From a virus, in the IMG/VR virus record IMGVR_UViG_3300005529_000007, positions 3,169 to 67,168 of that record: a stretch of DNA of 64,000 bases; one strand, 5' to 3'. Positions within the stretch are counted from its first letter, which is position 1. Each line of letters starts with the position of its first letter. Both the position numbers and the translations under genes were made by a program. Positions 602-56,976 of this stretch are shown one piece after another. Under the pieces are notes generated by a model. That model did not search any database, was not told the origin of the DNA, and was given only the letters and a program-made list of their open reading frames with translations.

Positions 602-921
602 TGGCAACATATTCAAGTATTTTCATCCCCGCTTGCAGTGGATCTGCCTCCACACAGGACATTAGCGGTTCTGTGGGAGCGGCCTCGGCATCGGGCGAGA
701 TCGTCCTGGGTAAGTATCGCCTCTTTGCGATCAATGCCTCGGGAGATCTGAACATCATCGTGGGGCAGGCAGGTGTGCAAGCGCCTACGGCTGCCAACTT
801 CCGCATTCCCTCCGGGGTTGTGGCGGTCTACGACCTGGGTTCTCACGCCGACAGGATTCGCCTCTTCAACAACGGTGCTGGTTCGGTCACGTACTGGATT
901 CAGCCCCTGGAGCGCACCTAA
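601..921 (+). CDS. Small beta-rich putative virion protein
   Basis: 106 aa, translationally coupled within the structural operon. Confidence 0.65.
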   Translation: MATYSSIFIPACSGSASTQDISGSVGAASASGEIVLGKYRLFAINASGDLNIIVGQAGVQAPTAANFRIPSGVVAVYDLGSHADRIRLFNNGAGSVTYWIQPLERT

Positions 922-1802
922 TGAAAAAACTCCTCTTAACGTGCCTTCTCCTAGTGGGCAGCGCCTTCGGGCAGCTCGGGCAGTTCGGGGGAGGGACGAG
1001 CAACGGCTCAGGGAGCTCCGGGACGCTCAGTGCAGGCACACCGCTCTGCATTGGAGGTGACACTGGATGGTCCAGGTCGGCGGCAGCTATTTGGAACGCG
1101 GGAACGTGCGCCAATGGCAACGCCACAGGGACTATCAACGCAGCCACGATCAATGCTGGCTCGGGTGTATTCTCCACTGGAACAGGCGCAGGGCAACTTA
1201 CGCTTGGCCAGGGTGCAGCTCCGGGAGCGCTCACGGCGAATACTTGGAACCTCTATGCCCCTGCGACGCTCACAACTTCCTATGGCTGGACCCTACCTGC
1301 GGCGGGCAACACTGGCGCAGCCCAGGGACTCCTGGTAAGCCAAGCTACAGGCTCTCCTCTCAATTCCAATCTTAGTTTCTTGACGCTGTCTAACCCCACT
1401 ACGACTGGTGGGTATGCGACCTTCACGGGCACGCTGACTAATAACAACGTAGCTTGTATCCTCGGGACCTCCCCCAACCAGGACATCGGCAACTGTGGCG
1501 CTTCTGCCTCGTTGAACGGCCTGAACTTCACCAAGCTCAACGCCAATACCAACGGCACGCACTTCACGGCCACTACTGCCAACAAGGACATCTACGGCGT
1601 CTGTGCCTTCGCTGCCGCAACAACCTGCTCAATCGTTTTCACCACGAACTATTCATCGACTCCTGGCGTGCTAATCACGCCCCTGATTCCTGGCTCCACC
1701 ACCTTCACCGTTACTGCCGTGGCCACGACTGGCTTCACGATCACAGCCAGCGCCTCCTTCACCGGGAACGTGGCCTACCTAACGTTCGGTGACCCGAACT
1801 AA
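921..1802 (+). CDS. Tail fibre-like protein with N-terminal signal peptide
   Basis: Leader MKKLLLTCLLLVGSAFG; G/T/N/S-rich body; C-terminal beta domain typical of fibre tips (TTGFTITASASFTGNVAYLTFG). Confidence 0.7.
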   Translation: MKKLLLTCLLLVGSAFGQLGQFGGGTSNGSGSSGTLSAGTPLCIGGDTGWSRSAAAIWNAGTCANGNATGTINAATINAGSGVFSTGTGAGQLTLGQGAAPGALTANTWNLYAPATLTTSYGWTLPAAGNTGAAQGLLVSQATGSPLNSNLSFLTLSNPTTTGGYATFTGTLTNNNVACILGTSPNQDIGNCGASASLNGLNFTKLNANTNGTHFTATTANKDIYGVCAFAAATTCSIVFTTNYSSTPGVLITPLIPGSTTFTVTAVATTGFTITASASFTGNVAYLTFGDPN

Positions 1803-3595
1803 TGTTCCGTAAGCTCATCGCAGTCTTAGCGCTGTGTGCTTCTAGCTTCGCTGTTACAGCGGGGCATGGCTGGAAAGGGATTACCCTCACGGCTACGCCA
1901 GGACTTCCTGGTTGCGTTGGGGGCTCTCTCGTCTGCGGGAACCTGGGCACCTCTGCCACGATCCAAACCGACATCGTCAATGACACCACCATCATGACGA
2001 ACATCAAGCCTGCCTTTCAGCCGAACGTGGCCTGGGCAGCTTGGGACGGCGATCAGAATGGCAATGGTACTTGTGCAACCAACCACACATCTGCCTGTGT
2101 GGACTGGACGCAAGTAGACAACATGTTGATGCAGTACGTGAGCGCAGGTGTGGTTGTCAACCCCATGATGGTCCCTACCCAGGGCATCCAGGCGGCGATT
2201 GAGAACTACTTGCCGACGTATGTGACAAGTCCTACGTATGCCACGACCCTCGGGGCCCTGCCGAATACCCTCACTTGTTGCAATAACTTCTCAGCTAGTC
2301 TCTGGACTGGCACCAGTGTAAACACCGGAACGAACTGCGCAGGAGGGGATGCAAACACCGTCTGCGTGAACGTGGGTCCGAATTTCACCACGGGTAGTTC
2401 CTGGGTGGGAATGGGAGTAGTTGTGGGGACTTCGGTCTTTACGATAGCTTCTGTTACCAACACCACCAACCTAGAGCTTACTACCAGCCCTGGGAATCAA
2501 TCAGCAGTCTTCTTTGGGGTAGGTAGTCCGTTTGGTTCTGGTGCGAACTGCGGAACTCCGCCGTGCACCTATCCCCAGTGCGGCGGCACAAACGGCTGCC
2601 TCTGGACACAGAGCCAATTCAACGGCAACCAGGGCGAGCCCGTGCAATACGAGATCCCCTTCCAGACTGCCTGGCAAGTCGCCATTGGCAAGATCCTCCG
2701 ACATTTTTCAGGGAATACCTCCCTCTGCCAGTCCGACCAGGCCACGGGAGATGTGACCGATTGCACCCAGGCGAATCAGATCGCGGCTGCTATTGGCTAT
2801 GTCCGCTTCGGCTTCGGCGGCAACTCCGAGAACTTCGGCATTTGCTTCAACCACTGGACGTTTAACGTAAACAGTTTCCTGGGGACAGGCTTTACAAATG
2901 CCGAGGATGAATACATCCTCCACGCCTCCACGAACTACATCCAGACGATGTTCAACTATACCCAGAGCCTGGCCACGACCTACAACGTGCCCTTTGATCT
3001 GGTGGCTGACACGCATGGCTGGGGCGCTGGCGCAGGCGATGTCAACGCCGCGAATGCGGAATTTAAGTACGCAGTGGCCGTGGGCTGGGGCTCCGGCAAC
3101 CACGGAATGCAGAAGTCCGACCTTACGAACTTCGCCACGGGCGTAGCTACGAATGCTAACTGGCTAGGGAATCATCTCCTCTACGCTGGCCAGACCTTGG
3201 ACTACATGCAGCTCTTTGCTGCGGACGATCCAAGTTGCATGTTGGGCGCGTGCGCGAGCACCAATCCAAATGCCGTCCAGGTCGGTGCCCTTCCTCCGCT
3301 TCTAGTGTTCGCCTCCGAGCATGGGATTCGTCGAATCGAATTCACCATTTGCCCGGTTGTGGGACTCCACTTCACCGTAGGCAACTACGCCTCACTGCCG
3401 ACGAACGGCCTGGCTTCTGGGAACAACTTGAATTGCTCCTCGGGCTGGGTCAGCTCTGCCACCTTCAATGCCCTGGGAGGCCCCACCGGGGTCTACTTCC
3501 AGGCCATGCAGAACTTCGTCAACGGCACCCCTGTGTCAGCCTCCGCCCTCTCGGGCAGCGTTGCCATCAAGGGGAACAACGCCATACTTCACTGA
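1802..3595 (+). CDS. Cys-rich exported protein, possible glycoside hydrolase or virion appendage
   Basis: Signal peptide MFRKLIAVLALCASSFA; about 20 Cys; WAAWD...DWTQVDNML segment resembles TIM-barrel glycosidases. Confidence 0.6.
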   Translation: MFRKLIAVLALCASSFAVTAGHGWKGITLTATPGLPGCVGGSLVCGNLGTSATIQTDIVNDTTIMTNIKPAFQPNVAWAAWDGDQNGNGTCATNHTSACVDWTQVDNMLMQYVSAGVVVNPMMVPTQGIQAAIENYLPTYVTSPTYATTLGALPNTLTCCNNFSASLWTGTSVNTGTNCAGGDANTVCVNVGPNFTTGSSWVGMGVVVGTSVFTIASVTNTTNLELTTSPGNQSAVFFGVGSPFGSGANCGTPPCTYPQCGGTNGCLWTQSQFNGNQGEPVQYEIPFQTAWQVAIGKILRHFSGNTSLCQSDQATGDVTDCTQANQIAAAIGYVRFGFGGNSENFGICFNHWTFNVNSFLGTGFTNAEDEYILHASTNYIQTMFNYTQSLATTYNVPFDLVADTHGWGAGAGDVNAANAEFKYAVAVGWGSGNHGMQKSDLTNFATGVATNANWLGNHLLYAGQTLDYMQLFAADDPSCMLGACASTNPNAVQVGALPPLLVFASEHGIRRIEFTICPVVGLHFTVGNYASLPTNGLASGNNLNCSSGWVSSATFNALGGPTGVYFQAMQNFVNGTPVSASALSGSVAIKGNNAILH

Positions 3596-3849
3596 TGGGC
3601 AGAATATATATCTATAAAAATCCCCGCACCCCCTTTAGGAAGCTCCCTAAGGGCGTGAACCTCCACCTCGTGGAGCCGCCACAGTACGTCTGTGCGAAGT
3701 GCCGAGAGTACGCCAAGGAATACTCCGATGGCGTCATCTGGTGCGACAAGTGCGGTGGGCCCAAAGAACAATCCGACCTCGTCAATCTCCGTCGCGGAAG
3801 ATCGCGTGTGACGCCAACCCCTGAATGGAAACGCATCAACGTTGATTAA
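3595..3849 (+). CDS. Zinc-ribbon protein
   Basis: ATG 3595 overlaps the upstream TGA; CAKC and CDKC motifs. Confidence 0.65.
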   Translation: MGRIYIYKNPRTPFRKLPKGVNLHLVEPPQYVCAKCREYAKEYSDGVIWCDKCGGPKEQSDLVNLRRGRSRVTPTPEWKRINVD

Positions 3850-5644
3850 GAAACTTCTTCTTAGCTTAGTCCTGCTAGGTTCTGCCTTCGCCCAGGTGAA
3901 CACGGCCAACATTGGCTTGATTCAGATCCCAGATGGCACGCTCAACTGGGGCGGATCAATGCGCACCAACTTCAACATCCTGGATAACCTGTTCTCTGCG
4001 TCGAATCCAACCGTTGTCCCAGGCTTCAAGGTTACGAATCTTTATCTCCCTGCGGTCTCTGTCGGGAGCTGTCTCAACGTCGGGGCGCTTAACGTCGTCA
4101 CCGGATACAACTGCCTGAACTTGGTATCTGGTCCGGGCATGAACTGCACGGGCTTCTCGGGCACGGTTACCTGTGGTATGACCAACACGGGTGTGACTGC
4201 GGGAAGCTACTCGAATGTCAACGTGACGGTGGATGCTCAGGGAAGAATCCTTGGTATCTCCAGCAGCACTGGCGGGACAGGCCTTCCAGCGACAGTCAAC
4301 TATCTCCCCTCTGGGTCGAACCAAGCCACCATCCAAGCTGCCCTGACGGGCGCGATCAGCGGAGAGACCATCTGGTTCTCAGGGTCCTATACCGCGTGCG
4401 GACTTACTTTGTCCGTGCCGGATGTGCACCTCCTTGGAATGGACGAAGACGGTTCAGTAATTTCCTGCGCAACCGCCAGTTCACCCATCTTGACAGTCAG
4501 CGGCGCAGGCGACCAGGTAGACAACCTGAACCTGAAGCACGTGACCAACTCCCCTACTTGTCCTGGAGGCAATGGAACTGCAACCTGCGGAGACGGCATT
4601 CAAGTCTTCCCCTCAGGCTCTCGGGTCAGGATCTCGAACGTCCACACGAATTTCAACTACAACGGTATCGCCCTGGGCTGGACGGCCTACGCGGTTCTCG
4701 ACAACTTCATCTCCGAGTTCAATAACAACCACGGAGTAGCGTTCATCCTGGACGCCAGCAACCCCCACATGCAGTGGGAGGTGGGACGCGGACTCTCTGA
4801 GCAGAACCTGGGCAATGGCTTCGATGTCACCTGTCCAGCGTCGTTCACCAATGTCCACACTCCTGGCCCGCACTTCTCGGGCAAGACCCAGACCTTCGGC
4901 AACAACGGCTACGGCTTCAACTTCGACTGCACGGCAGCGACCTCGTCCGGGATCTCGGACATCTGGATAGACGGAGCATTCTCCTCCCAGAACAACAAGT
5001 CAGGCTTCCACTTCAGCAACGGTGGGCGGAACGTCATCATGACGGGAACCTATTCCGAGCAAGCTGGAAGCTACGCGGGTGGCGCAGGATTTCCAAACTG
5101 TAGCGGCAATCCTTGTTCGCAAACCCCCTCGGGCTCGGGCTACGGAATCGAAGTAACCTCCGCTTGCGACAACACCTTTCCCCCGGATATTACGGGCGGC
5201 GGCATATGGCAGAACGACTACAGCGGAATCTTTGCTGGATGCCCTGGCATGTCGATCACTGGCGTCAATACGTTTGACAACGGCTTCGCCTCTGCCTCGG
5301 CCCAGACCGAAGCAGGCATCACCATCGCGGCAGACAACGTGAACGTCACGGGTGGGTACAACCAGAAGGGCTCGCATGAGACTTCCGGTATCTACATCCA
5401 GTCTGGGGACAAGCCGAACATCATGGGCTACCAGTGCGATTCCAACGTGAACAACTGCATCAACGTGGCCTCGATCCCCGCTAGTGGCTTCATCGAGCGC
5501 ATTGGCAACTCCCGCTGGACACAGTCGGACTCGGTAGCCTCCGGTTCCTGCCAGAACGGCGACAAGTGGACGCGGACGAATGCTGCCAACACTGGCACCT
5601 CCGAATGGACGTGCAAGAACGGCGCATACGTGGCCATTAACTAA
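3842..5644 (+). CDS. Tailspike, right-handed beta-helix (pectin-lyase-like), with signal peptide
   Basis: Leader MIKKLLLSLVLLGSAFA; head-binding-like segment TANIGL..P.G..NWG...NFNILD; fibre motif GVTAGSY...TVDAQGRI; then N/G-rich beta-helix repeats. Confidence 0.8.
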   Translation: MIKKLLLSLVLLGSAFAQVNTANIGLIQIPDGTLNWGGSMRTNFNILDNLFSASNPTVVPGFKVTNLYLPAVSVGSCLNVGALNVVTGYNCLNLVSGPGMNCTGFSGTVTCGMTNTGVTAGSYSNVNVTVDAQGRILGISSSTGGTGLPATVNYLPSGSNQATIQAALTGAISGETIWFSGSYTACGLTLSVPDVHLLGMDEDGSVISCATASSPILTVSGAGDQVDNLNLKHVTNSPTCPGGNGTATCGDGIQVFPSGSRVRISNVHTNFNYNGIALGWTAYAVLDNFISEFNNNHGVAFILDASNPHMQWEVGRGLSEQNLGNGFDVTCPASFTNVHTPGPHFSGKTQTFGNNGYGFNFDCTAATSSGISDIWIDGAFSSQNNKSGFHFSNGGRNVIMTGTYSEQAGSYAGGAGFPNCSGNPCSQTPSGSGYGIEVTSACDNTFPPDITGGGIWQNDYSGIFAGCPGMSITGVNTFDNGFASASAQTEAGITIAADNVNVTGGYNQKGSHETSGIYIQSGDKPNIMGYQCDSNVNNCINVASIPASGFIERIGNSRWTQSDSVASGSCQNGDKWTRTNAANTGTSEWTCKNGAYVAIN

Positions 5645-6213
5645 TGCCAGGCTTTGGTTCAAATCCGTTCGGACAGACAGCCTTTGGTGATCCCCCTGTA
5701 CCGACTTTAACGGTCTCAGGTTGCATCCCGCTGATTCCTTCTCCGAATGGACAGAACTGGACCCTGGGCATCACCGACAACGGAGAACTCACCACCACCC
5801 CAGCGCGGCAGGCAGGCATTCCTTCTCCTATGAAGATCGCCTCCCCGAGCTTTAGTTGGCTCATCACTGCCGACAACAACGGGGCAATCGTAACTACCCA
5901 GTTCTCCCTGGACTCCTCGCCCTTCTACTGGACGTTGAGATCCCTCCCTAGCTTCCTGCGCTATGCCATCTCAGCCGACGATCTCGGGGAACTTCAAACG
6001 CAACTGTTCAATGTTGCGGCGAATATCTCGGCTACTGTTCCTTATCCCCAAGATGTAACCATGTCCCGCTGGCCTGACACCATTGGCCTGATCTGCTACT
6101 CCTGTGGCAACGCCACGGTCAGCCTCTCAGCGGACATGAGCTGCTGGTGCTGTTCCTGCAACTCCTTCGTAGACGTAGAAGACACCAACGAGCTGGTCAT
6201 CATAGACGAGTAA
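5644..6213 (+). CDS. Putative tail-associated protein with three short repeats and a C-terminal Zn ribbon
   Basis: Repeats WTLGITDNGELTT / WLITADNNGAIVT / YAISADDLGELQT; CYSC...CWCCSC. Confidence 0.6.
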   Translation: MPGFGSNPFGQTAFGDPPVPTLTVSGCIPLIPSPNGQNWTLGITDNGELTTTPARQAGIPSPMKIASPSFSWLITADNNGAIVTTQFSLDSSPFYWTLRSLPSFLRYAISADDLGELQTQLFNVAANISATVPYPQDVTMSRWPDTIGLICYSCGNATVSLSADMSCWCCSCNSFVDVEDTNELVIIDE

Positions 6214-8111
6214 TGTTTAAGAAATTTATAGCAATCCTCACCCTGGCTGCTACGTGCTTCGCACAGACGCACACTACCGTGATGAAGGATCTGAATAGCA
6301 CCATCACTGGCGCAGTCTCCACCAGGCAGTGGATCGACGCCTCGGACACCTCCCGGTTCACGGGCGATGCCTGCCAGATGATTCTCGCGGCCCAGCAAAG
6401 CACAGCCGTGGGAGTGGTGATTGATGCCCGTGGCTTCACGGGCGACCAGGCATGTTCGGTTAATCCGTTCTCCTTTAGCTACCAGGGGACCATTCTCCTG
6501 GGGCCTACGTTCTACCACATTGCCACGCCCTGGATGCTGCCTCACAAGGTCAATCTTCTCGGAGCTGGCTGGGAGACGGGCCTGGGCAATAACTCCATTG
6601 GCTCGACGGTTATTCAGGCTTGCAGCGGGGCTGGACAGTATTGTGCCGGAGCATTTCCCTCGAATGGGATCATGTTCTGCTACACGGACGATGGCACTAC
6701 GTGCAACCACACTAGCGGACCAGTCTTTGACTCGCCTTTATATAACTTAACCTTCGACGGGAACAACGTCCTAGGCATCACTCTCTTGGCGAACTTCGTA
6801 GGCCAAGAGGGAACGGGCTTCTTCCGCATCAACGGCTTCGGCTACGGCAACCATGGCGTGGGTATCAACCTCGGTGGGATTGGCAAGGACCCCGTAGACA
6901 ATGGTCCTGGCTCCCAGAACACCACCCTCGACGAGATCTCCCTCTCGCTCATCACAGGCAATACCTGCACCGTAGATTCGATTGGCATCCTGGTGGACAC
7001 TGGCGGTCCGGCTTTCCCGAGCGCCCGCTCGATCAGCAATGTGACCATCACCAACCAGGGATGCGCCTCGAACCTCTACCCGGATGTAAACATCCAGATC
7101 AGCACAGGCTCCATGAAGCTGGACTCGATTCACTGCGAGAGCTTTCAGCGAGCGTGTGTCACCCTGGGGTATAGCCCAGTTGGCTTAGCAGGCGGCGCTT
7201 CCGGCATCTCCATCGACGAGATCAACTGCGGGAACTGTGCGCCACAGCCTTCGACCAACCTGGCCACCACCACTTCCATTAGCGGCAACACCGTCACCGT
7301 CACAGGCCTGGGCACGAACACCAACATCCGCGTGGGCGACCTGGTCATCATGTCGGGTTGCGCCCCGGCTGGCTACAACAACGCCTACGTAGTTCTTACT
7401 ACGACCGCCACGACTTTCACAGGCGTCATCGGCGGGAACACCCCTCCTGTCGGGAACGGCACCTGTAGTGCCTACCAGCCAGAGAACACGGTTGTTCTGA
7501 TCTCCAATCAATATGCGGCAGGCACGGCCTCTATCTCTCTTTCCAACGTTAGGGCTGTCGGGCCTAATCTCCCCTTCGACACGATTGTCGATGAAATCAA
7601 CGCCACGGCCAGCACCGGAGCCACGGTCAATACCACCAACGCGAACGTGCTAAATGCTGCGGTTGAAAATCAAGTCTCCCTCTACATCCTGGGCGATGCC
7701 AGCTCCTTCCCCGCATTCGGCACGAACGTCTTCACGACTTCCTGGCAGATCCCGCAAACGCAGCTTTCGGTGATGTCCACACAGGAAATTGTCACCTCGT
7801 ATAACTGCGCTGCCCAAGGCGGCAACTGTCAGAACGGCGGTCCCTCACAGCCAGCGGTCATTGCGGGCCTGGTCGCCATCGGCACCGGACAGACCACCGT
7901 CACAGTGACGACGAAGGCTGTCACATCGAACTCCGAAATCTTCATTCAAGAAGATCCCTCTGCCGGGAGCAGGTTCCTGGCCACGTGCAGCACCTCTCAA
8001 TTCGTCAACGCCATGGTCACCTCTCGCAGCGCTGGAGTCAGTTTCACGATCACGATCTCTGCCCCGGTTACAAGCAATCCCCTCTGTTTTGACTTCTGGA
8101 TAGTCAACTAA
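6213..8111 (+). CDS. Tailspike/fibre (beta-helix) with signal peptide
   Basis: Start ATG 6213 overlaps the upstream TAA; leader MFKKFIAILTLAATCFA; beta-helix body; fibre-tip C-terminus (TVTVTTKAVTSNSEIF...GVSFTITIS...FWIVN). Confidence 0.78.
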   Translation: MFKKFIAILTLAATCFAQTHTTVMKDLNSTITGAVSTRQWIDASDTSRFTGDACQMILAAQQSTAVGVVIDARGFTGDQACSVNPFSFSYQGTILLGPTFYHIATPWMLPHKVNLLGAGWETGLGNNSIGSTVIQACSGAGQYCAGAFPSNGIMFCYTDDGTTCNHTSGPVFDSPLYNLTFDGNNVLGITLLANFVGQEGTGFFRINGFGYGNHGVGINLGGIGKDPVDNGPGSQNTTLDEISLSLITGNTCTVDSIGILVDTGGPAFPSARSISNVTITNQGCASNLYPDVNIQISTGSMKLDSIHCESFQRACVTLGYSPVGLAGGASGISIDEINCGNCAPQPSTNLATTTSISGNTVTVTGLGTNTNIRVGDLVIMSGCAPAGYNNAYVVLTTTATTFTGVIGGNTPPVGNGTCSAYQPENTVVLISNQYAAGTASISLSNVRAVGPNLPFDTIVDEINATASTGATVNTTNANVLNAAVENQVSLYILGDASSFPAFGTNVFTTSWQIPQTQLSVMSTQEIVTSYNCAAQGGNCQNGGPSQPAVIAGLVAIGTGQTTVTVTTKAVTSNSEIFIQEDPSAGSRFLATCSTSQFVNAMVTSRSAGVSFTITISAPVTSNPLCFDFWIVN

Positions 8112-10208
8112 GTGCCTCTAGAGTACAACAACCCATCCGTTGCTCCCATGGTCTCGGTCTCCGAAGACCCTAACGAGCAGATTACCAACAAGGCTATTAC
8201 CAGCCTGCGTCGTATGCGGTACTTCCGCAAGCAATACGACCAGCGCCGGGCCTACTTCTATCGGCAATACATTGGGCAGCGGGACCAGAGATTCTACCCG
8301 GATAACATCACCCCCAGGGCGAACTCCTTTGTTCCATATCCTCTCTCCAACGTAGAGACCATCGTCTCCCGTGTTCTGGATGCCTTCTTTTCATATGAGG
8401 ACTTCTTTGATTCGCGTGGCCGCTCTGCGCAAGATGAGCCCTCTGCCGAGAAGATGAAGCACGTCCTGCTCAAGATGTTCCACGAGGCCAAGCTCATCCA
8501 GTCCTTCGAGACCCTGGTGCGGAACATCGCCATCTACGGCCACGCAGGAATGAAGATCGACTGGGATTGGGACTTCGATTGGGTGACATACGCCAAGCCC
8601 ATCTTTGCCATGAGCGACGATGGCATGACGCCGCTGATGCAGCCGACCCTGGACCCCAATACGATGCAACCTGTCATGCAGCCTGTCATCCTGGGGTATC
8701 AGCCAGATCGCAAGCCAGTGGCGCGGAACAGGCCGCGCTTCATCCCCATCGACGTGTATGACCTGATGGTCGATCCCGATGGCGGAATCATTGCCCATCT
8801 CACCGAACGCACCCTTGGACAAATGAAGCGCGAGCAAGCCATGAGTCTCATGGCAGCGCAGCAGGACCCCAGCAAGAAGCCGCTCTATCTCCCAGAGGCA
8901 ATGGAGACCTTGGAGCGCCGCGTCAGGGAAAGCGTCAAGGCTCCCGACAACCCGGATGATACTGTCATCCGCCTAGCAGAGCTCTGGGATGAATATGCCC
9001 AGACTCAAACCATCATGACCTACGGCGAAGATGCCGAGGCCATAAGCTGGAAAGATCTCCGCGCATCCTACAGGGCCGCAGGCTACAGCCCCTTCAAGCG
9101 CAAAGTTTACGCAGGCACGCCTCTCCTTCTCTACCACGGAGAGAGCCCCTTCATGCACAAGAAGTGCCCGATTGTGCACACGAGCTTCATCAAGATTCCG
9201 AATGAAATCTTCGGCCTGGGTGCCATCGAGATCATCTCGGACTTGACCGAGTCCCTGAACAAGTTCGTCAACATGGTTACGGACAACTGGAACCTGGGCA
9301 TCAATCGGCGGTTTGCCTTCGACGTGAACGCCGACATCGACCATGAAGCACTGAACAGTTTCAACGTCCCAGGCGGACGAGTGGGCGTCTCCGGCGATCC
9401 CACCAAGGTCATCATGCCCCTGCCCTTCTTCACCCCCCAGGCAGGCGACTACCAGGTCCTCGATCTCTACAAGGGCATGATCGAAATGACCTCCGGGGTG
9501 AGTGACTTCTACTCCAAGGCAGTGGGTTCCCCGACTGGGAATCGCACCGCCACAGGCATCAGCAATGTCATGCAGGAGTCCAACTACAGGTTCAAGATGT
9601 TCATCCGCAACCTGGAACTGGATGTCCTACAGCCTCTCCTTGAAATGTGCGCCTCGATGGTCCAGCAGTACTTGACGGATGACATTGAAGTGCAGATCAC
9701 CGGGGAGAACCCCACCATCAAGAAGTGGATCACCCTGCGCCCCGAGGAACTCATCGGGACTTTGCAGTTCGATCTCATTGCCGCCAACTACGCCAGCAAT
9801 CGGATGATTCGCCAGAGAAACCTGCTGGCCTTGTTCAACCTGGCTGCACAGAGCCCGTACCTCAACCAGTACGAGGCCCTTAAAGAACTCTTCGTGGCCT
9901 TCGAGGTGCGCAACGTCAACAAGCTGTTGTACGCCCCGCCTCAAGTTCAGATGATGCAGCTCCAAGAACAAGAGCAGCAGATCAAGATGATGGCCTTGCA
10001 GAGCATGATGGACACCGAAGGGAAGGCCCGGTTAAGCCAGGCCAAACCGCAAATGGGCAAGGGCCCAGACGGGCGTCCGCGCAAGATGCAGTTCGAGGGC
10101 AAGATCCCAGGCGCAGGCCTGATGGGTCCGATCCGCGAGCTCGCGCAAAGCATGGGAGCCAACGGCCTCGGCCTTGAAGGCATGGGTCAGGTTCCTGAGG
10201 GAGAGTAA
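8112..10208 (+). CDS. Portal protein
   Basis: 698 aa upstream of scaffold and capsid; IYGHAGMKIDW and RTATGIS motifs; Q/M-rich C-terminal tail typical of podoviral portals. Confidence 0.88.
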   Translation: MPLEYNNPSVAPMVSVSEDPNEQITNKAITSLRRMRYFRKQYDQRRAYFYRQYIGQRDQRFYPDNITPRANSFVPYPLSNVETIVSRVLDAFFSYEDFFDSRGRSAQDEPSAEKMKHVLLKMFHEAKLIQSFETLVRNIAIYGHAGMKIDWDWDFDWVTYAKPIFAMSDDGMTPLMQPTLDPNTMQPVMQPVILGYQPDRKPVARNRPRFIPIDVYDLMVDPDGGIIAHLTERTLGQMKREQAMSLMAAQQDPSKKPLYLPEAMETLERRVRESVKAPDNPDDTVIRLAELWDEYAQTQTIMTYGEDAEAISWKDLRASYRAAGYSPFKRKVYAGTPLLLYHGESPFMHKKCPIVHTSFIKIPNEIFGLGAIEIISDLTESLNKFVNMVTDNWNLGINRRFAFDVNADIDHEALNSFNVPGGRVGVSGDPTKVIMPLPFFTPQAGDYQVLDLYKGMIEMTSGVSDFYSKAVGSPTGNRTATGISNVMQESNYRFKMFIRNLELDVLQPLLEMCASMVQQYLTDDIEVQITGENPTIKKWITLRPEELIGTLQFDLIAANYASNRMIRQRNLLALFNLAAQSPYLNQYEALKELFVAFEVRNVNKLLYAPPQVQMMQLQEQEQQIKMMALQSMMDTEGKARLSQAKPQMGKGPDGRPRKMQFEGKIPGAGLMGPIRELAQSMGANGLGLEGMGQVPEGE

Positions 10209-10423
10209 TGTTCCACCACTGGGATTATGTCGCGCTGTGTGTCGCCATGGCAGTTGTCTTCGCCCTGGAGATGCTGGGCGTGTTCGGCAAGCATTACGTC
10301 ACGATCACTTACATCATCCGCACCTACATGCCCTGGGCGGCACGGGTAGCCGTGTGGCTCTGGCTAGGGCACCACTTCCTTAAGCCATTGCCTGAATGGC
10401 TCCAGAAGTATCTGGGGAAATAA
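10208..10423 (+). CDS. Small membrane protein
   Basis: 71 aa with two hydrophobic segments, coupled to the portal stop. Confidence 0.6.
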   Translation: MFHHWDYVALCVAMAVVFALEMLGVFGKHYVTITYIIRTYMPWAARVAVWLWLGHHFLKPLPEWLQKYLGK

Positions 10424-10468: not shown

Positions 10469-10825
10469 ATGTTCAAGAGGGATATTCACCACTACCACGT
10501 TGTAGAAGTCGAGAAAGGGAGCAAGCTCCCCGAGATGAACGGAGACCTCCGCGAATCTCTCAAGACTCTTCAACATCACCCCGGTTTCCAATACCTGATC
10601 CAGCGCTGGCGTTTTCACAAGGCAGCCCTTGAGACTACTCTCAAGGAAGGTTTGAATCTTACTGAGGTTCAACTCCGCTACCTGCAAGCTGGCATCTACT
10701 GGGCAGGTAAGATCGAAGACGAGATCAATCTTCTCACCAAGGCAACTCCCAAGTCCCGCCCTGCCGAAGACGACGAACATGCGGCCTTCGCCGCCATGGC
10801 GTCCAATCTCGAACTCGTTAAATAA
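10469..10825 (+). CDS. Hypothetical head-module protein
   Basis: 118 aa between portal and scaffold. Confidence 0.7.
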   Translation: MFKRDIHHYHVVEVEKGSKLPEMNGDLRESLKTLQHHPGFQYLIQRWRFHKAALETTLKEGLNLTEVQLRYLQAGIYWAGKIEDEINLLTKATPKSRPAEDDEHAAFAAMASNLELVK

Positions 10826-10866: not shown

Positions 10867-11778
10867 ATGCCCAATCAAGTGTCCCCTGGTTTCGACCGTG
10901 GCTTTGTCAGCATGAGCGATGCCCCTGGGGCAGACATTGGTTTCGACGATTTGTTCCCACCCGAAACCAACAATCTCGGTGCGCCACAAGCGCCACCTCA
11001 GGGAACTAACCCTCAAGAGCCGCCACAAGCTACACCTCCTACCGAAGCGGATTTCATCCGCGCTGGTCAGACGGTCTACAGAACTCGTGAGGATGCAGAA
11101 AAGGGAATCGAACATAAAGACTCCCTGATCTCGCGCTACCGGACATTCCTTGCAGACCAAGGAATCGACCCTGACGAACTCAAACCTCGCCCCAAAGCTC
11201 CCGAGCCCACAACGACTCCCGAGCCTCCTTCCCAGTTCAAGTACTACCAGAATCCCAAGATGTTCGATGAATTGTCCGAGGCTGTCAAAGCCCAGGACAA
11301 GGTTCGTTATCAGCAGATCCTGGAACAGCACAACCTGGAGCAGATGAACGCTGTCTTCGCTCCTGTTGCGCCGTACATCGCTGAAGTCGCCCGGCAACGG
11401 GCCGTCCGTCAAGTTGCGGACGAAGTCCCAGACTTCACACAGTTCATCAATAGCCAAGGCTACCGAGAAACCCTCAAGAGCCTGCCCAGCTTAGAGATGG
11501 CTGTCAAGAACGCGGAAAGCAACTTTGCGATGGCAGAGAACCTAGGCGAACTCTACAAGATCGCCTACCTGGTCAATCAGGGGCGGAACCGAAGCGCAAA
11601 TCCGGCACCGATTCAACAGTCTGTGCCTCCCCCGGCTGTGAGACCGACAACCGCACCCTCTACCATGACTCCCCCCGCCCCCGCTCCCCCGACTAGCGAC
11701 TGGACCACTAATCGTGATTCACGTCGCCAGCTCATCAAGGACATGGAGGGCAGAGGCATAAAAGACGTTGCGTTTTAA
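10867..11778 (+). CDS. Capsid scaffolding protein
   Basis: Pro-rich termini, helical core, directly upstream of the capsid gene; SD AAGGA. Confidence 0.75.
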   Translation: MPNQVSPGFDRGFVSMSDAPGADIGFDDLFPPETNNLGAPQAPPQGTNPQEPPQATPPTEADFIRAGQTVYRTREDAEKGIEHKDSLISRYRTFLADQGIDPDELKPRPKAPEPTTTPEPPSQFKYYQNPKMFDELSEAVKAQDKVRYQQILEQHNLEQMNAVFAPVAPYIAEVARQRAVRQVADEVPDFTQFINSQGYRETLKSLPSLEMAVKNAESNFAMAENLGELYKIAYLVNQGRNRSANPAPIQQSVPPPAVRPTTAPSTMTPPAPAPPTSDWTTNRDSRRQLIKDMEGRGIKDVAF

Positions 11779-11813
11779 CTACTCACAGCAGGGTCCAATT
11801 CACGAGGAAAACC

Positions 11814-12824
11814 ATGTTTAAGAAGTTTCTTTCCCTTCTCTTCATTGTCCTCGGTTTCGGACCTGATGTCGTAACTGTCACAGCAGGTACGGCAGGCAAT
11901 GCGGGGTCAACAGCCGCCGAGCTGATTACCTACATGTCTGCCCGTCTCTTGGAAGTGGCCGAGTTCAATACCATCCTCGACCAGTTCGGAGACAAGCATC
12001 CCCTCCCCAGCAACTCCTCGAAGACGATTCGTTTCGTCCGTGAAGAGAAGCTGACGGTTGCTGCTACGCCTACTCAGTTGACAGAAGGCATCCCGCCCGA
12101 TGCTGTGGGCCTGACCCTTAACCAGATTGAGGCCACGATTGAGCAGTATGGTTCCGTGGTTCGTTTGTCAGATCTTGCTGAGATCACCGCTCGTCATTCC
12201 ATTACCGAGCGCACGATCTACATCCTAGGTCTGCAAGCGGCTGAAACCTACGACCAGCTCATCTTCAACGTCCTCAACGCTGCAACTAACACCTACTACC
12301 CCAACAACAGAGCGGGTGATACCTCTCTGCTTGGCTCTGACTTGGTCGGCTTCCCTGACCTGGTCGAACTGGATGCTGCCCTGCAAGATCAGGGTGCGCG
12401 GCCCTTTGAAGGGGGCGAATACGTTTTCGTCACCCCGCCTCAGGTCTATGCAGGCATCCTGAAAGACCCGGACTACAAGGCCTCCAATCAGTTCCGCGCC
12501 CCTGAAAAGATCTGGCGTGGTGAAGTCGGCGCTCTCGGTGGATTCCGCGTAATCCGCTCGAACAGCGCTGCATTCGCTGCCACCTCTCAGGCGGGTGCGG
12601 GCCAGGCGAGCAAGGTGTTTAGCTCGTTTGCCATTGCTCGTTTTGCTTATCAGATTACTGATTTGCAGAACCTGCGCGTCTATGTCGTGGCCCCTGGTGG
12701 CCAGACTGACCCGTTGCAACAGAGCCGGAAGATCGGCTGGAAGTTCGCTTTCAAGTCGCTGATAACCAATCAGAATTGGGTGCGGCGAGTTCGTTCAGCG
12801 GGTGCAAACTCCATCACTAACTAA
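11814..12824 (+). CDS. Major capsid protein (N4-gp56-like) with hydrophobic N-terminal leader
   Basis: LPSNSSKTIRF, LTEGIPP, QYGSVVRLSD, GEVGALGGFRVI and DPLQQSRKIGWK motifs; SD GAGGA. Confidence 0.9.
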   Translation: MFKKFLSLLFIVLGFGPDVVTVTAGTAGNAGSTAAELITYMSARLLEVAEFNTILDQFGDKHPLPSNSSKTIRFVREEKLTVAATPTQLTEGIPPDAVGLTLNQIEATIEQYGSVVRLSDLAEITARHSITERTIYILGLQAAETYDQLIFNVLNAATNTYYPNNRAGDTSLLGSDLVGFPDLVELDAALQDQGARPFEGGEYVFVTPPQVYAGILKDPDYKASNQFRAPEKIWRGEVGALGGFRVIRSNSAAFAATSQAGAGQASKVFSSFAIARFAYQITDLQNLRVYVVAPGGQTDPLQQSRKIGWKFAFKSLITNQNWVRRVRSAGANSITN

Positions 12825-12826
12825 TA

Positions 12827-13396
12827 GTGCCTAAGACCGCAAAGCAAAAGTCCCAGAACAGAATTTGGTACCACCGTCATCGTGATGAACAAATCATCAA
12901 GATGAAAGAGTACCGGAACAAACTCAAAGACCGCTGCTTTGCGGCTTACGGTGGCTATGTGTGCGCTTGTTGCAAAGAGACTGAACAGTCTTTCCTTTGC
13001 ATCGACCACATCAACAACGACGGTTATCAACATAGAAAGGAAATCGGGTTCAGGGGAGGAATTGGAATTTACCTTTGGTTAATTCGCAATAACTTCCCTC
13101 CCGGTTTCCAAGTTCTCTGTTTCAACTGTAACCAAAGCAAGCGTCTAAACAAAGGCGTTTGCGCACACAAAGGAACAAAGATGAGTCATTCATTTGAGCA
13201 ACCTGGTCCTGGAGATGGCATCCACGAAATGCGGAGGCCGGAAGGTCACGCCCATCTCGACCAGAAACTCGACAAAGGGATGCGGTCTCCAATGATTGGT
13301 CAGCTTCCCATGAACGCTGGCCTAGAGAGCCCCTCTGAATCTGCCCAGAATGGTAGTGGCCACGGTGATAGTGGCTACACCGGGAGCGGCTTCTAG
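12827..13396 (+). CDS. HNH endonuclease fused in frame to a ~71 aa protein with its own start at 13181
   Basis: CACC...IDHINNDG...LCFNCN; internal AAGGAACAAAG-ATG at 13181 starts MSHSFEQPG. Confidence 0.75.
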   Translation: MPKTAKQKSQNRIWYHRHRDEQIIKMKEYRNKLKDRCFAAYGGYVCACCKETEQSFLCIDHINNDGYQHRKEIGFRGGIGIYLWLIRNNFPPGFQVLCFNCNQSKRLNKGVCAHKGTKMSHSFEQPGPGDGIHEMRRPEGHAHLDQKLDKGMRSPMIGQLPMNAGLESPSESAQNGSGHGDSGYTGSGF

Positions 13397-13740: not shown

Positions 13741-14120
13741 CCTGGGACGACTACAACAAAGCACTCTTGGCCTTAACCATGTGGCGTGAAGCCCGTGGGG
13801 AGGGCCGAGAGGGCATGTACGCAGTGGGATGCGTCGTGCGTAACAGGGTCGTTGCGAACGACTGGGAACTGGTCATGGCGAAGAAACGGCAGTTCTCATC
13901 CCTTACTGCGCCAGGAGATGCCATGCTTGTGCAGTGGCCCCTCCAAGGCGATCTCCCCTTTGAGACGGCAATGGAACTTGCCGAGGCCATTTACTCCGGT
14001 TCCCTGCCGGACATTACCGAAGGCGCAACTCACTACTTCAACCCAAACGTAGTTCTTCCAACCTGGGCGAAGGACATGACCAAGATCAAGTCCATTGGCC
14101 ATCATGACTTCTATAAGTGA
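13737..14120 (+). CDS. SleB-like cell wall hydrolase (endolysin candidate)
   Basis: GTG 13737 overlaps the upstream TGA; EARGEG..GM.AV..V..NR, QFS, GATHY and IG.H.FY motifs. Confidence 0.88.
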   Translation: MTWDDYNKALLALTMWREARGEGREGMYAVGCVVRNRVVANDWELVMAKKRQFSSLTAPGDAMLVQWPLQGDLPFETAMELAEAIYSGSLPDITEGATHYFNPNVVLPTWAKDMTKIKSIGHHDFYK

Positions 14121-14731
14121 ACCCAACTGTCCTTCTTGTTCGGCACGCAGAAACAGAACTAAACGATCCTAAGAATGAGAAGATCCGGGGATACTCGGAT
14201 ATTCCCATCTCCTACAAGGGCAAAGACGGCTTGCGGAATACCGCGAGCTTTCTCAAAGAGCAAGCGTTTCCGATTGCCTTTGTACTCAGCTCCCCTCTCC
14301 AGCGGGCAATGATGTCCGCGAACGAAGTGGCGCAGCCCTTCGGAGCCAAGGTCATTCCCAACAATTCCCTTCTCCCTTGGAGCCTGGGCAAGTTGACAGG
14401 CGAGCCCGTGGCCATGGCTGCCAAGGAGATGAATTACTACCAAGAGTATCCCGACATCAAGGTGCCTGAAGGTGAAAGCTACCGCGACTTCTACAACCGC
14501 TGGGCCGTTGGCCTGGACAAGATGTTGCTCTATGCCGAGCAGCATCCTGAGGAGGTTCTAGTTGGAGTGGTTCATTCGCGTAACCTACTGGCTCTACCTA
14601 GTATTTTGGGCTCACGTGATATTGGGGACGTGCCTGTCAAAGGGGGCCCACCTCCCGAAAGCGTCACGCAAATCTCGCAAGACGAAAACGGAAACTGGCA
14701 CATGAAAGTAATCCACCAGGAGCCAGCGTAA
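14117..14731 (+). CDS. Histidine phosphatase (phosphoglycerate mutase family)
   Basis: LVRHAET, SSPLQRA, GES...R and VVHS motifs. Confidence 0.88.
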   Translation: MNPTVLLVRHAETELNDPKNEKIRGYSDIPISYKGKDGLRNTASFLKEQAFPIAFVLSSPLQRAMMSANEVAQPFGAKVIPNNSLLPWSLGKLTGEPVAMAAKEMNYYQEYPDIKVPEGESYRDFYNRWAVGLDKMLLYAEQHPEEVLVGVVHSRNLLALPSILGSRDIGDVPVKGGPPPESVTQISQDENGNWHMKVIHQEPA

Positions 14732-24900: not shown

Positions 24901-26847
24901 GGCCTGGACGCAGGACTCAAGCCGCTGACCTACAACCCAATTAAGATGCAGCTCCTGGGCCTCTATGAGATCGACCGCTTCATCATGGCCCATGAGATGA
25001 AGAACGACATGCGCCAGGCTGGCCTGGTGAAGTTCGTGAAGATCGGCCAGGATGTCCCTCCCGGCTGGTCCAAGCTGGATGACAAGATCTTCAAGCCGCG
25101 CCTGTTCAAGGACGGTGGCCTTACGTCGTACGGCGAATACTGGGCCCCGGCTGACGTGGCCAAGGTATTTAATAACTACCTCTCTCCTGGTCTCCGTTCC
25201 AACGAGGCCTATGAGATCGCCCGCCAGTACGGCAACTTCATGAACCAGATTCAGCTCGGGGCCTCTGCCTTCCACGGCGGCTTCGAGGTCGTCAATGCGA
25301 GTTCCTCTGAGGTGGCCCTTGGCCTCCAGCAGCTCACCCGTGGACAGTACGCGGATGGCATGAAGCGCATCGCTCGTGGCTACGCAGTTGGCCTCGCGGC
25401 CAAGCATTACTACTCCCTGGGCAAAGCCATCGAGCAGGAGTACATCGCCCCTACAGGCATCACGCCCAACAACATCAAGCTCGTTGAAGCTGTCCGAGAA
25501 CTGGAGATCGCAGGTGGCCGTATCGGCCTCGATCCCATCTACTCCAATCAATCCTTTGATGCCATGCGCAAAGCCTGGACCGAGGGAAGATACATCGCCT
25601 CTGGTGCACACGCCCTGGGTCACGCTGTCGAATACACCGCCCGCCCCTTGATGAAGTACTTCGTTCCCCGCATCAAGCTGGGGATGTTCGCGGACATGGC
25701 ACAACATCGCCTGACTGAACTCATCAACCAAGGAGCCACCCGCGACGAGATCGCCCACGAACTGGGCAAGGTCTGGGACAGCGTAGACAACCGCGCTGGC
25801 CAGCTCGTTTACGACAATCTCTTCTGGAACAAGGCCACCAAGGACATTGGCTTCCTGGCTGTCCGCTCTCTGGGCTGGACCCTCGGTACTGTCCGTGAAC
25901 TTGGCGGCGCAGGCGTCGATACCTTCCGCCAGGCTTCTGACCTCCTCAAAGGCAACGGCAAGAATATCCGCCTCACCGAGCGCCAGGCCTATGCCATCGG
26001 TATGACGACCACTGTCGGTCTGATCGGTGGCATCATGACCTACCTGGCCACAGGCAAAGCCCCCCAGAAGGCCGAGGATTACTTCTTCCCACCTACGGGT
26101 ACCCTGGACCCCTCCGGCAACCCCGCTCGTCGCTCCTTGCCCTCCTACGTGCGCGATGTGGCGGCTTTTAAGAACCAACCGCTCCAGACTATAACCAACA
26201 AGGCCCAGCCCCTCCTGGTGGACATCCACCAGCTCTGGACCAACCAGGACTACTACGGCACTGAGATCCGGCACCCAGGAGATAGTACCCTGGCTCAAGT
26301 AGGCGAAGTTGCCAAGCACGAGCTGACTAACCTTCAGCCGTTCGGCATTCAGTCCTACATGCGCAGCAGACATTCGGCTGAGTCCCGCTTAGACAGTGCC
26401 CTCTCATTTGTCGGCGTGACCCCAGCCCCTCGCTACATCGGCCAGACCAAAGCCGAGAAACTGGCCTACGAACTTTCCGAGCGGCACAGAGAAGCAGGCC
26501 CGAGAGACGCGAATACCTTCCAGAAGTACCGCACCGCAGGGCAACTACGAGCCCTATATGCCGCAGGCAAGATCGACGAATCCAAACTAGATGACGCTCT
26601 CTTCTCTGGGAAGATCACCGACTCCCAGTACAACGACATAGTAGACGCCACCCAGATGACTCCCTTCGAGCGACAGGTCAAGTCCCTGAAAACTCCTGAG
26701 GAGATCATGACGGTCTGGCGCGAAGCCAACCCATCTGAACGTGCAACCATGCACGACTACATGGAAGGAATGTGGGATAGAATAGACCCAGATACTCAGC
26801 CCGAACTCTTCAAGCAGTTCGAGAAAGAACTGGGATACGAGCAATGA
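21904..26847 (+). CDS. Large internal virion / DNA ejection protein
   Basis: 1647 aa, helical, last gene of the podoviral structural block; C-terminal region resembles large polyvalent proteins. Confidence 0.72.
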   Translation: MADQVADYLRSQQIPDSVRADAWDAYHQATDANDFQSRFTKLQVPDNVKADLWDMRFAAQPQRRVTNVPTGEIRADDSWMSGARRMVANTALGHALQSSMPKVADFFGLTPSHTVYDPEYEATKGQLLAPQELIAASQPDSVMGYVKDAARAGLGGVGSLTSGENMATMAGIATGGGALAEVYFGSEMLIGADQGLKRSYQAASRGDYHTAAAEFGAAATNLELGRRTLRHLAGAETHSPMPGTNLVAPENGNGVSSPASVPAAPEVLAPKPKVPEPPLVPEGSEQPAPQVSAPPPAPEVSARPVFKGSDIASRLDTIERSLPGEVPEAKPKALPQNGSLEDEPNYLKRPLSVDPATGERKVIRDSYPEDMAARGKKKFDFYTDANKQIENAAKYNPQGEQIGDAKILAAYRENQANAVAGFRTWAQYADIEDVKGAVKDLAAKIKDGGERLDMMRVLGYGLSKDKLVFHAGIEGTEQITEDALQKAIGRRTVPSVPKDYTIEDPIKKDMVDKGLARQKDVDALDEQIDKLKETYKKATSLDEKQSISDHIDALREQRKAPFKEVKDAKATLRRDWASNYIRSKGLELSDQIAHYRDLAQAAIRAKQLRPKDFVEEVKTDVAPIRQLGTGEEAVQYSKESIAGAVFGSEADARKAAEQVYGDKYTLRTREREGKQVYSVLPREEVARQVTAQSTGDIAARKQNLDFLKKELTKATTEKARLKLQRAIAKEERALGLSASEAPTGPTAATAGTPKAPEAAAPTRESVQAPQGTEVRPSFDERMKARTEVKDDIFEYRVQQLVKKGMSRATAELMVRKKMESERGSFSNKPPMGAYGPSGPGVLWRLGSALDRVFGDRSSEEKKQTETIIREAGGELARKHEMIWNKLQEGIDRHDADTEVQTRQFMDAGEMKPGATVLSPEDQAMAQELHSMFQERWDKLKNLLPDRFDGAGIENYLKHIWEGKRGQVAAERLWQSVGGKRPLEGSATFARHRFYRYFSDGLDAGLKPLTYNPIKMQLLGLYEIDRFIMAHEMKNDMRQAGLVKFVKIGQDVPPGWSKLDDKIFKPRLFKDGGLTSYGEYWAPADVAKVFNNYLSPGLRSNEAYEIARQYGNFMNQIQLGASAFHGGFEVVNASSSEVALGLQQLTRGQYADGMKRIARGYAVGLAAKHYYSLGKAIEQEYIAPTGITPNNIKLVEAVRELEIAGGRIGLDPIYSNQSFDAMRKAWTEGRYIASGAHALGHAVEYTARPLMKYFVPRIKLGMFADMAQHRLTELINQGATRDEIAHELGKVWDSVDNRAGQLVYDNLFWNKATKDIGFLAVRSLGWTLGTVRELGGAGVDTFRQASDLLKGNGKNIRLTERQAYAIGMTTTVGLIGGIMTYLATGKAPQKAEDYFFPPTGTLDPSGNPARRSLPSYVRDVAAFKNQPLQTITNKAQPLLVDIHQLWTNQDYYGTEIRHPGDSTLAQVGEVAKHELTNLQPFGIQSYMRSRHSAESRLDSALSFVGVTPAPRYIGQTKAEKLAYELSERHREAGPRDANTFQKYRTAGQLRALYAAGKIDESKLDDALFSGKITDSQYNDIVDATQMTPFERQVKSLKTPEEIMTVWREANPSERATMHDYMEGMWDRIDPDTQPELFKQFEKELGYEQ
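22801..22925. repeat. Inverted pair of the dispersed repeat (R2 -, R3 +) forming a ~125-bp palindromic element inside the CDS
   Basis: GACCCGTTTT..GGGGAGTG pairs with CACTACCCCAAAACGGGTC; inner stem GCTTCGC/GCGAAGC. Confidence 0.7.
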
Positions 26848-50786: not shown

Positions 50787-50980
50787 AGTTCGGTCCTCGG
50801 CTCCAAGTGCACCAGCCCTCCACAAGAAGAACAAATCACGTAGGGAAATGGCATCGAATTCACGGATGTTTCATGCACGCTGCCACACACGCTACAAGCT
50901 CCCCACATCCCTCCTACTTCTTCTGCGGCAGTAACCCCGTCCAGCTCGTAGATCTCCCCGTCTACATGTTGCTCAGCCAT
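50783..50980 (-). CDS. Zinc-ribbon protein
   Basis: CSVC...CSSC; ATG 50980. Confidence 0.55.
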   Translation of the reverse strand: MAEQHVDGEIYELDGVTAAEEVGGMWGACSVCGSVHETSVNSMPFPYVICSSCGGLVHLEPRTEL

Positions 50981-56971: not shown

Positions 56972-56976
56972 GGTAC

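Follow-up and report, generated by a model that had tools for sequence, protein, structure and literature searches.

The 64,000-nucleotide stretch of viral DNA analysed here (hereafter the window) corresponds to positions 3,169 to 67,168 of the record IMGVR_UViG_3300005529_000007, a complete genome of 67,168 bp with direct terminal repeats, of which it covers 64 kb. The feature under study is the N-terminus of the major capsid protein (MCP), a protein of 336 amino acids (aa) encoded at 11814..12824 (+ strand), which starts with a 16-residue hydrophobic leader, MFKKFLSLLFIVLGFG (11814-11861), followed by PDVVTVT. Comparison with related phages indicates that this leader is translated, that selection maintains its pattern, and that it is an optional module which one clade placed before an older N-terminus; its role is tentatively read here as that of a cytoplasmic propeptide or assembly helper, not of an export signal.

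The open reading frame (ORF) 11814-12824 encodes a major capsid protein of the N4-gp56 type with the HK97 fold. It matches TIGR04387 (N4-gp56 family) with 152.1 bits against a cut-off of 60 (residues 38-328), PF25209 with 38.6 bits against a cut-off of 27 (expect value (E) 2e-09), and phrog_1357 from residue 26 on (E 5e-43); because the matches to the family profiles leave out the first 25-37 residues, the N-terminus of the protein can be regarded as extra. An AlphaFold2 model built on an alignment of 83 sequences (predicted local distance difference test score (pLDDT) 80.8, predicted template modelling score 0.75) retrieved with Foldseek, as best matches, the capsid chains of Shigella phage B2, Pseudomonas phage DEV and coliphage N4 (PDB 9d82, 9bgn, 9e99 and 9lbz; E 7e-16 to 3e-14), the sequence identity to the best structural matches being just 14-18%. 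The gene order portal, scaffold, capsid, as expected for a member of this family, is present. The portal protein is encoded at 8112..10208 (+; PF23899 SU10_portal, E 6.5e-24; PF16510 P22_portal, E 2.4e-15); a conserved 118-aa ORF of unknown function (10469..10825, +) sits between portal and scaffold; and a putative scaffolding protein of 303 aa (10867..11778, +), placed between the portal and capsid genes, ends 35 nt upstream of the capsid start. The putative scaffold gave no family match in the profile scans, and its conserved C-terminus recurs upstream of the capsid gene in relatives.

A word-index search for homologs of the MCP yielded 375 relatives, the best 120 of which (65-89% identical), together with the query, gave the 121 sequences analysed below: 90 with a leader, 27 without and 4 truncated at the N-terminus. 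With so many bearers, the leader is not a product of chance. The original prediction had described a good Shine-Dalgarno (SD) sequence followed by the leader, and both are found as claimed: GAGGA at 11801..11805 (+) lies 8 nt before the capsid ATG at 11814. Likewise, GAGG or AGGA occurs within about 15 nt of the leader start codon at 23 of the 26 leader-bearing loci examined for this signal, which were drawn from the 34 such loci introduced below. The alternative, a mis-called start with translation beginning downstream, for instance at ATG 11934, such that the leader is never made, could draw on four database entries (P0035, P0075, P0099 and P0114) that begin at M41 or later; these, however, look like truncated calls. 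No in-frame ATG, GTG or TTG exists between 11814 and ATG 11934, and residues 17-41 are more conserved than any other part of the N-terminus (the 90 homologs average 0.75 in pairwise identity, and D18, G25, G28, G31 and L37 are invariant), for which reasons the downstream start was set aside. Moreover, the frame is open, with a conserved pattern, across the leader in all 90 homologs. The chance that the start is mis-called is thus next to negligible, and the leader, judged by this comparative evidence, is translated.

The leader consists of a basic tip, a hydrophobic helix and the tripeptide G-F-G. The tip, M-F-K-K (11814..11825, +), is a basic n-region with K3 and K4; the helix, F5-L13 (FLSLLFIVL; 11826..11852, +), is hydrophobic with a single polar position, S7, which is position -10 when counted from the boundary; and the Gly-x-Gly joint, G14-F15-G16 (11853..11861, +), forms the end of the leader. 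Beyond the boundary lie the strongly conserved ancestral N-terminus, P17-G31 (PDVVTVTAGTAGNAG; 11862..11906, +), which is disordered in the monomer model, and the N-arm helix, residues 32-51 (11907..11966, +), as delimited by AlphaFold2 secondary structure. In the same model residues 2-12 are helical, with a pLDDT of about 73 for residues 1-10, and residues 15-30 have no confident structure (pLDDT <50).

Across the 90 leaders, the length varies between 12 and 24 aa, with a median of 16, and the pattern is kept much more strictly than the sequence. Glycine occupies position -3 in all 90 and position -1 in 89, with F (54), L (22) or I (7) between them. The register of the helix is fixed: position -12 is L, F or I, positions -9, -8, -7, -5 and -4 are hydrophobic, position -6 is small, and position -10 is polar or small in 86/90. 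At least one K or R is present in 83/90 leaders, with K or R at -13 in 50/88 and N, S or K at -14 in 51/86. The mean hydrophobic moment of the leaders is 0.41 (standard deviation (sd) 0.11) versus 0.28 (sd 0.14) for shuffled versions, the window's leader scoring 0.39. The hydrophobic run of the window's leader is made up of 9 residues and the G-F-G, position -10 being S; for 60 of the 90 leaders, a stretch of just 9 uncharged residues, G-x-G included, precedes the boundary. By contrast, when the two glycines are excluded, pairwise identity between leaders averages 0.28, versus 0.75 in the next 24 residues, and a rough estimate of the ratio of nonsynonymous to synonymous substitution rates (dN/dS) is 0.37 in the leader versus 0.12 in the following 24 codons, with dS saturated. 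The most variable position of the mature N-terminus is the first one after the boundary, +1, which among the leader-bearing proteins is A (47), S (15), P (12), L (5), T (3), V (3), N (2), G (2) or I (1), and never Q. The leader is a sharply bounded element under purifying selection that acts on its pattern.

The 27 leaderless homologs begin M-A-D-V/I-I/V-T-V-T, such that the start codon replaces the last Gly of the leader (G16), and the G-x-G joint is missing in all of them. At the nucleotide level, 61 IMG/VR loci were classified as leader-bearing (34), leaderless (13) and split or cut (14). At all 13 leaderless loci the upstream frame is closed within a few codons, and roughly 20-40 nt separate the scaffold stop from an SD and a start codon (ATG at 11 loci, GTG and TTG at one each), which is followed by GCN/CCN-GAY; because this leaves no room for a leader in any frame, these loci truly lack one. 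Both forms are abundant, the leader cluster P0007 comprising 95 sequences and the leaderless cluster P0061 comprising 90. An alignment of homologs, named in the original prediction as the way to learn whether the leader is clade-conserved, shows it in 90 of the 117 full-length close homologs. The converse possibility raised there, that close homologs lack a hydrophobic leader, proves to be half true, in that this holds for the remaining 27 of the 117, as well as for 19/20 proteins of the sister clade and 4/4 cultured relatives described next. Given that many close relatives are naturally without it, the leader is a dispensable, optional module.

A maximum-likelihood tree of the 117 mature parts, computed with the leader columns removed and unrooted, implies 17 switches between the leader-bearing and the leaderless state, of which at least 9 are forced by branches with a support of >=95 in the SH-like approximate likelihood ratio test. 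When the leader states are shuffled, the mean rises to 24.6 changes, and none of 500 shuffles needs as few as 17. Several very close pairs of proteins are of opposite state (P0082/P0102, P0034/P0084 and P0051/P0063). Members of the sister clade, which are 35-52% identical to each other and about 40% identical to the window MCP, begin directly with M-A-D-V, M-S-V-I or M-P-N-I; among the 20 sister-clade proteins found with P0125, the lone leader-bearing one, P0289, has the N-arm of the window's clade. Four cultured relatives, namely Stenotrophomonas phage StenR_269, Pseudomonas phage Rollin, Paenibacillus phage API480 and Bacillus phage Page, all have polar, leaderless N-termini. Because both the sister clade and these four phages lack it, the leader is a gain of the window's clade, placed before an ancestral M-A-D-V start. 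This gain appears to have been followed by repeated loss or by recombinational exchange between relatives, two courses that the unrooted tree does not separate.

Four other ORFs of the structural arm, all located between the terminase region and the portal gene, encode fibre-like proteins of 293-632 aa, each starting with a 17-aa signal peptide: ORF 921 (921..1802, +; ending A-F-G, then Q), ORF 1802 (1802..3595, +; ending S-F-A, then V), ORF 3842 (3842..5644, +; ending A-F-A, then Q) and ORF 6213 (6213..8111, +; a fibre- or spike-like protein of 632 aa with a Sec-type peptide ending C-F-A, then Q). None of the four had a family match in the profile scans. The likeness between the capsid leader and that of ORF 6213, which the original prediction had pointed out, is close: both start with MFKKF, and 14 of the 15 underlying bases are identical; the same design recurs on the other three. 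A crude filter of our own for signal-peptide-like N-termini, applied to the + strand ORFs of the structural arm, flags exactly these four and the capsid protein. These four ORFs are also the sole candidates for receptor-binding proteins that we saw, three of them having Gln after the signal peptide, and fibres of this kind raise the question how signal-peptide-bearing proteins could join a virion. Two smaller minus-strand ORFs, 45368-45772 (-) and 57952-58665 (-), also look secreted.

The same filter was run on ORFs of >=200 aa in 50 loci with 10-kb flanks and in this genome, and it returned 53 distinct signal-peptide-like ORFs, of which 20 are capsid genes and 33 are not. Among the 33, the first residue after the uncharged run is Q in 26, H in 4, R in 2 and N in 1; in the 20 capsid genes it is always the conserved Asp, D18 of the window's protein, that ends the run, and Gln at +1 occurs in none of them and in none of the 90 leaders. 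Glutamine at this position, the 'Q-rule', is reported as specific to Bacteroidetes for substrates of signal peptidase I (SPI; PMC5837995). From the Q-rule of the co-resident signal peptides, which is the sole host clue, the host of this phage is probably a member of Bacteroidota. Comparison of the portal protein and the DNA polymerase with cultured phages gave only hits of 20-27% identity, from many host phyla. The ESM Atlas led no further than 'Viruses', and two scans of genome contigs returned nothing or short contigs from metagenome-assembled genomes whose binning is doubtful. The capsid protein encoded on one 1,961-bp contig (L066), which is binned to a metagenome-assembled genome of Thaumarchaeota, is 71% identical to that of the window; this is most likely a binning artefact and not a host signal.

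Whether the capsid leader is itself a true Sec/SPI signal peptide, through which the protein would be translocated via SecYEG and cut after G-F-G, can be judged against this set. The remark in the original prediction that there is no AxA site is literally correct, although G-F-G still puts small residues at -3 and -1, and such residues, an n-h-c design, a length of 16 aa close to the 17 aa of the four co-resident peptides (which likewise end in F-A or F-G), and the lack of any basic residue in the first 25 mature residues would all suit a signal peptide. With those peptides the leader shares the basic tip, the hydrophobic stretch and F at -2. It differs from them in ending G-x-G instead of A/S/C-x-A/G, in its shorter core (in most leaders about 6 residues plus G-x-G), in the conserved polar or small residue at -10, in its fixed amphipathic register, and in the residue after the boundary, which is never the Gln that follows 26 of the 33 non-capsid signal peptides. 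Proline, which blocks SPI when it stands at +1, occupies precisely this position in the window's leader (P17) and in 12/90 leaders overall. Furthermore, the sole capsid protein of a DNA-packaging tailed phage would have to remain cytoplasmic, and 27 of the 117 relatives do without a leader altogether. Because the leader differs from signal peptides and the capsid protein is needed in the cytoplasm, real export of this protein is unlikely, and processing of the leader as a genuine Sec/SPI signal is highly improbable.

The suggested tie to an exported-fibre pathway did not survive the comparison of loci. A signal-peptide ORF lies upstream at 12 of 22 leader loci versus 1 of 9 leaderless loci, counts which include near-duplicate loci and are not phylogenetically independent. 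The exceptions go in both directions: the leader loci L074, L081, L091, L103 and L117 have no signal-peptide ORF within 10 kb upstream, the leaderless loci L085 and L102 adjoin such ORFs, and the leaders never share the +1 Gln. On account of this non-independence and of these exceptions, a functional link between the leader and the signal-peptide fibre genes was rejected.

With regard to the role of the leader, we tentatively favour a cytoplasmic, dispensable propeptide or assembly helper that is either cut at the Gly joint or left flexible. Acting in the cytoplasm and not as an export signal, the leader would keep new subunits in check until the scaffold takes them, be it by masking the N-arm or by holding the subunits on a chaperone or membrane surface. 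The load-bearing lattice would do without it, and eventually a host protease would clip it at Gly-x-Gly, or it would remain inside as a flexible tail. Translation, the position of the boundary, dispensability, the gain in this clade and the differences from true signal peptides are shown by the comparison, whereas any clipping, a protease that performs it and a part in assembly are inferred. A lattice-like role is disfavoured because identity is so much lower in the leader than in the adjoining residues, because a linker that is disordered in the model follows the helix, and because no site of the mature protein co-varies with the leader: none is significant, the best being residue 20 with n=9 independent pairs. 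The idea of a novel processed propeptide, which was already part of the original prediction, gains indirectly from the fact that leaderless forms start exactly at the boundary and from the invariant G-x-G; no protease for it was found in the scans described below.

Several observations weigh against this reading. PF04327 (Prp) has no match in the complete genome, and among the ORFs that were compared with Pfam, PHROGs and NCBIfam no prohead protease was detected, the sole protease-like domain being a SprT-like one in the replication arm (37940-38275, -). The arrangement with a delta domain and a prohead protease does not apply either, given that no protease was found among the ORFs scanned and that the leader has 16 aa against about 100 aa for such a domain. 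The motif G-hydrophobic-G fits no protease specificity that we can name and is not the Prp motif. Moreover, a fixed register and an amphipathic pattern would suit a stable helix with a specific partner, and a purely dispensable part is expected to decay, yet the pattern is kept in 90 lineages. Finally, the N-arm of N4 gp56 (residues 1-46) is described as ordered from residue 1 and as reaching a quasi-2-fold axis (PMC11768535), so that an extension at this place could, if that description carries over, be structural.

No gene of the head module was found to co-vary with the leader. The 118-aa ORF 10469-10825, suggested as a leader partner by tblastn, was rejected, since a profile search finds it in 29/29 loci (18 with and 11 without leader), which makes its apparent absence an artefact of divergence. 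The search for an extra gene, such as one for a decoration protein, beside leaderless capsid genes gave no consistent pattern. Just after the capsid gene of L019, L020, L021, L023 and L025, which belong to one subclade, lies an ORF of 80-120 aa with a shared N-terminal motif that could encode a decoration protein; of these five loci, four are leaderless (out of 11 such loci) and one bears the leader. Separately, a strongly hydrophobic 71-aa ORF (10208-10423, +), which has a weak match to DUF6186 below the cut-off, overlaps the portal stop.

The membrane tethering of procapsids contemplated in the original prediction corresponds to a leader that stays uncleaved as a membrane-targeting helix, embedded in or resting on the inner membrane at its cytoplasmic side, and concentrates capsid subunits or nascent procapsids there. 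Terminal amphipathic helices that target bacterial cytoskeletal and division proteins to the membrane resemble the leader in design, and the leader, by sequence and by model, does combine a short amphipathic helix and basic residues with a flexible linker: a basic tip is followed by a helix of about 10 residues and a Gly-rich linker, and the mean hydrophobic moment of the leaders exceeds not only that of the shuffled versions but also the values for the genome's four true signal peptides (0.15-0.27). A conditional benefit of membrane contact would, in addition, fit the repeated presence and absence of the leader. An assembled procapsid, however, would be expected to hide such a helix, as the N-arm of HK97-type capsids presumably faces the scaffold side; no membrane partner co-varies with the leader, ORF 10208-10423 being detected by tblastn in just 1/61 relatives (L008, 43% identity); and the 27 leaderless relatives evidently assemble. 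We accordingly regard this possibility as unlikely. A bolder version, in which the leader is a working membrane-directing signal that draws capsid subunits to the cytoplasmic membrane, where head assembly starts, and in which it is useful only conditionally, appears quite unlikely. If it were true, the benefit would vary, for example, with the host or with a defence of the host that recognises the N-terminus of the capsid protein, and such a signal would explain both selection in most lineages and at least nine losses or swaps.

Two further possibilities dispense with the membrane. In one, the leader is a permanent element of the lattice whose uncleaved helices form a hydrophobic clasp between capsomers at or near quasi-2-fold axes and replace a cement or decoration protein. 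The fixed register of the hydrophobic positions and a helix modelled with moderate confidence would suit such a clasp, but identity is just 0.28 in the leader, as opposed to 0.75 in the neighbouring lattice residues; in addition, no compensating mature site emerges (residue 20, over 9 independent pairs, fails to reach significance), leaderless loci carry no consistent extra gene, the small ORF noted above being present at 4/11 of them plus one leader locus, and the leader was lost or gained at least 9 times. A clasp is thus rather improbable. In the other, the leader has no function at the protein level: its approximately 48 nt would be a module that aids initiation on the mRNA by being AT-rich and unstructured, or a near-neutral passenger that was taken over from the 5' end of a gene encoding a signal peptide and then passed between related phages by recombination. 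This is where the near-identity of the first five codons with those of ORF 6213, the richness of the leader in F, K, N, L and I codons, its patchy distribution in the tree and the relaxed constraint expressed in dN/dS would find a ready explanation. Nevertheless, the invariant G-x-G and the residue classes maintained at 14 positions in 90 sequences amount to constraint at the level of the peptide, and leaderless genes have ordinary SD-ATG contexts, which makes this account very unlikely.

Other features of the genome and of its relatives concern the surroundings of the capsid gene and the lifestyle of the phage. In 11 of the 61 related loci (L012, L015, L032, L035, L036, L044, L046, L048, L054, L057 and L059), inserts of about 40-1,100 nt split the capsid gene, at sites lying after residues 22, 50, 56, 75, 126, 133/150 and 317. 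These inserts are likely introns or insertions of homing endonucleases; a search of the 11 split loci against Rfam gave no family at the gathering score. In the window, a 189-aa ORF right after the capsid stop (12827-13396, +) looks composite: its first approximately 118 residues show, in our reading, an HNH-like Cys/His pattern, with no family hit, and the part from M119 on matches a small free-standing ORF, about 70 aa long, which is located downstream of the capsid gene in L006, L008 and L016. In a cultured relative, a homing endonuclease gene lies immediately upstream of the capsid gene. A histidine phosphatase (14117-14731, +; His_Phos_1, E 1e-21) is encoded among head, lysis and tail genes and is kept in many relatives, sometimes between portal and scaffold. 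At the end of the structural arm, two genes for tyrosine integrases, 26844-27710 (+) and 28418-29734 (-), face each other. A temperate lifestyle is probable, yet scans of 185,579 species genomes revealed no prophage copy. The early arm encodes three COOH-NH2 ligases of the phiEco32 type together with a glutamine amidotransferase (42269-43369, 49278-50834, 55541-56980 (-) and 47928-48968 (-)). No tRNA genes were found.

Short capsid leaders have so far been known from phages of Firmicutes, where they are cut by Prp and their purpose is unclear. The clade of the window adds a second, unrelated type of leader on capsid proteins of this family, carried by phages of another host that is probably Gram-negative. 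The clade also provides a natural experiment, with dozens of close capsid genes with and without a leader, such that allele swaps could test its function. In practical terms, predictors of signal peptides are likely to call these capsid proteins 'secreted', and annotators should not infer export from such calls. Our search of the literature on capsid N-termini with signal peptides or hydrophobic character and on membrane-associated procapsid assembly found no direct precedent.

The best-described counterpart, to which the leader is possibly analogous, is the capsid protein of Staphylococcus phage 80alpha, from which the host protease Prp cuts a leader of 13-14 residues between F and A (PMC5744158). 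Prp is described as a cysteine protease that also trims ribosomal protein L27, and the leader of the 80alpha scaffolding protein is reported to be cut too. According to the same account, 80alpha remains viable when its capsid protein is pre-cleaved or cannot be cleaved, the purpose of the cleavage is called unclear, and further structural proteins of related phages bear the Prp motif as well (PMC5744158). As far as these descriptions go, 80alpha and the phage of the window have in common a short N-terminal extension (13-14 aa and 12-24 aa, respectively) on an HK97-fold capsid protein, a separate scaffold, and the lack of a prohead protease, none having been found in the scanned ORFs of the window phage; the leader is dispensable in 80alpha, as the viable mutants show, and naturally leaderless forms exist in the clade of the window; and both the 80alpha-type phages and the window phage carry a similar leader on several structural proteins of one phage.

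The resemblance does not extend to the sequence. The Prp motif, given as MLxx(D/N)LQ(F/L)F'A(S/H)KK (PMC9405229), is found neither in the window's leader nor in the consensus of the 90 leaders, just as the original prediction had stated; the leader is instead a hydrophobic helix that ends in G-hydrophobic-G, and the host, if correctly deduced from the Q-rule signal peptides, is probably not of a Prp-bearing lineage. Ancestry from a Prp-type leader, for which P0242 and P0254 look like intermediates, was considered and rejected, as the nearest outgroups are leaderless and the genome has no Prp gene.

Two other systems bear comparison. Signal peptides have been predicted on the capsid proteins of phages of Porphyromonas gingivalis (proposed Nixviridae), with the guess that they are removed by prohead proteases (PMC10367356); as described there, these phages share with the window phage a Bacteroidetes host (probable in our case), capsid proteins with signal-peptide-like N-termini (predicted signal peptides in their case), and genomes that also encode Q-rule secreted proteins, and they differ in that a prohead protease is expected there and none was found here, the likeness being one of description only. 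The capsids of N4 (gp56), DEV, B2 and Moo19 share the fold and the family of the window MCP; N4 gp56, in the structure as described, has no hydrophobic leader, whereas the window MCP does. In a sample of distant members of the family (127 full-length representatives from the best 150 of 2,276 hits), Prp-type N-termini occur in 22 and hydrophobic N-termini of another kind in 5, the remaining 100 having neither. N-terminal leaders thus recur in this capsid family, and the type found in the window appears to be a separate invention.

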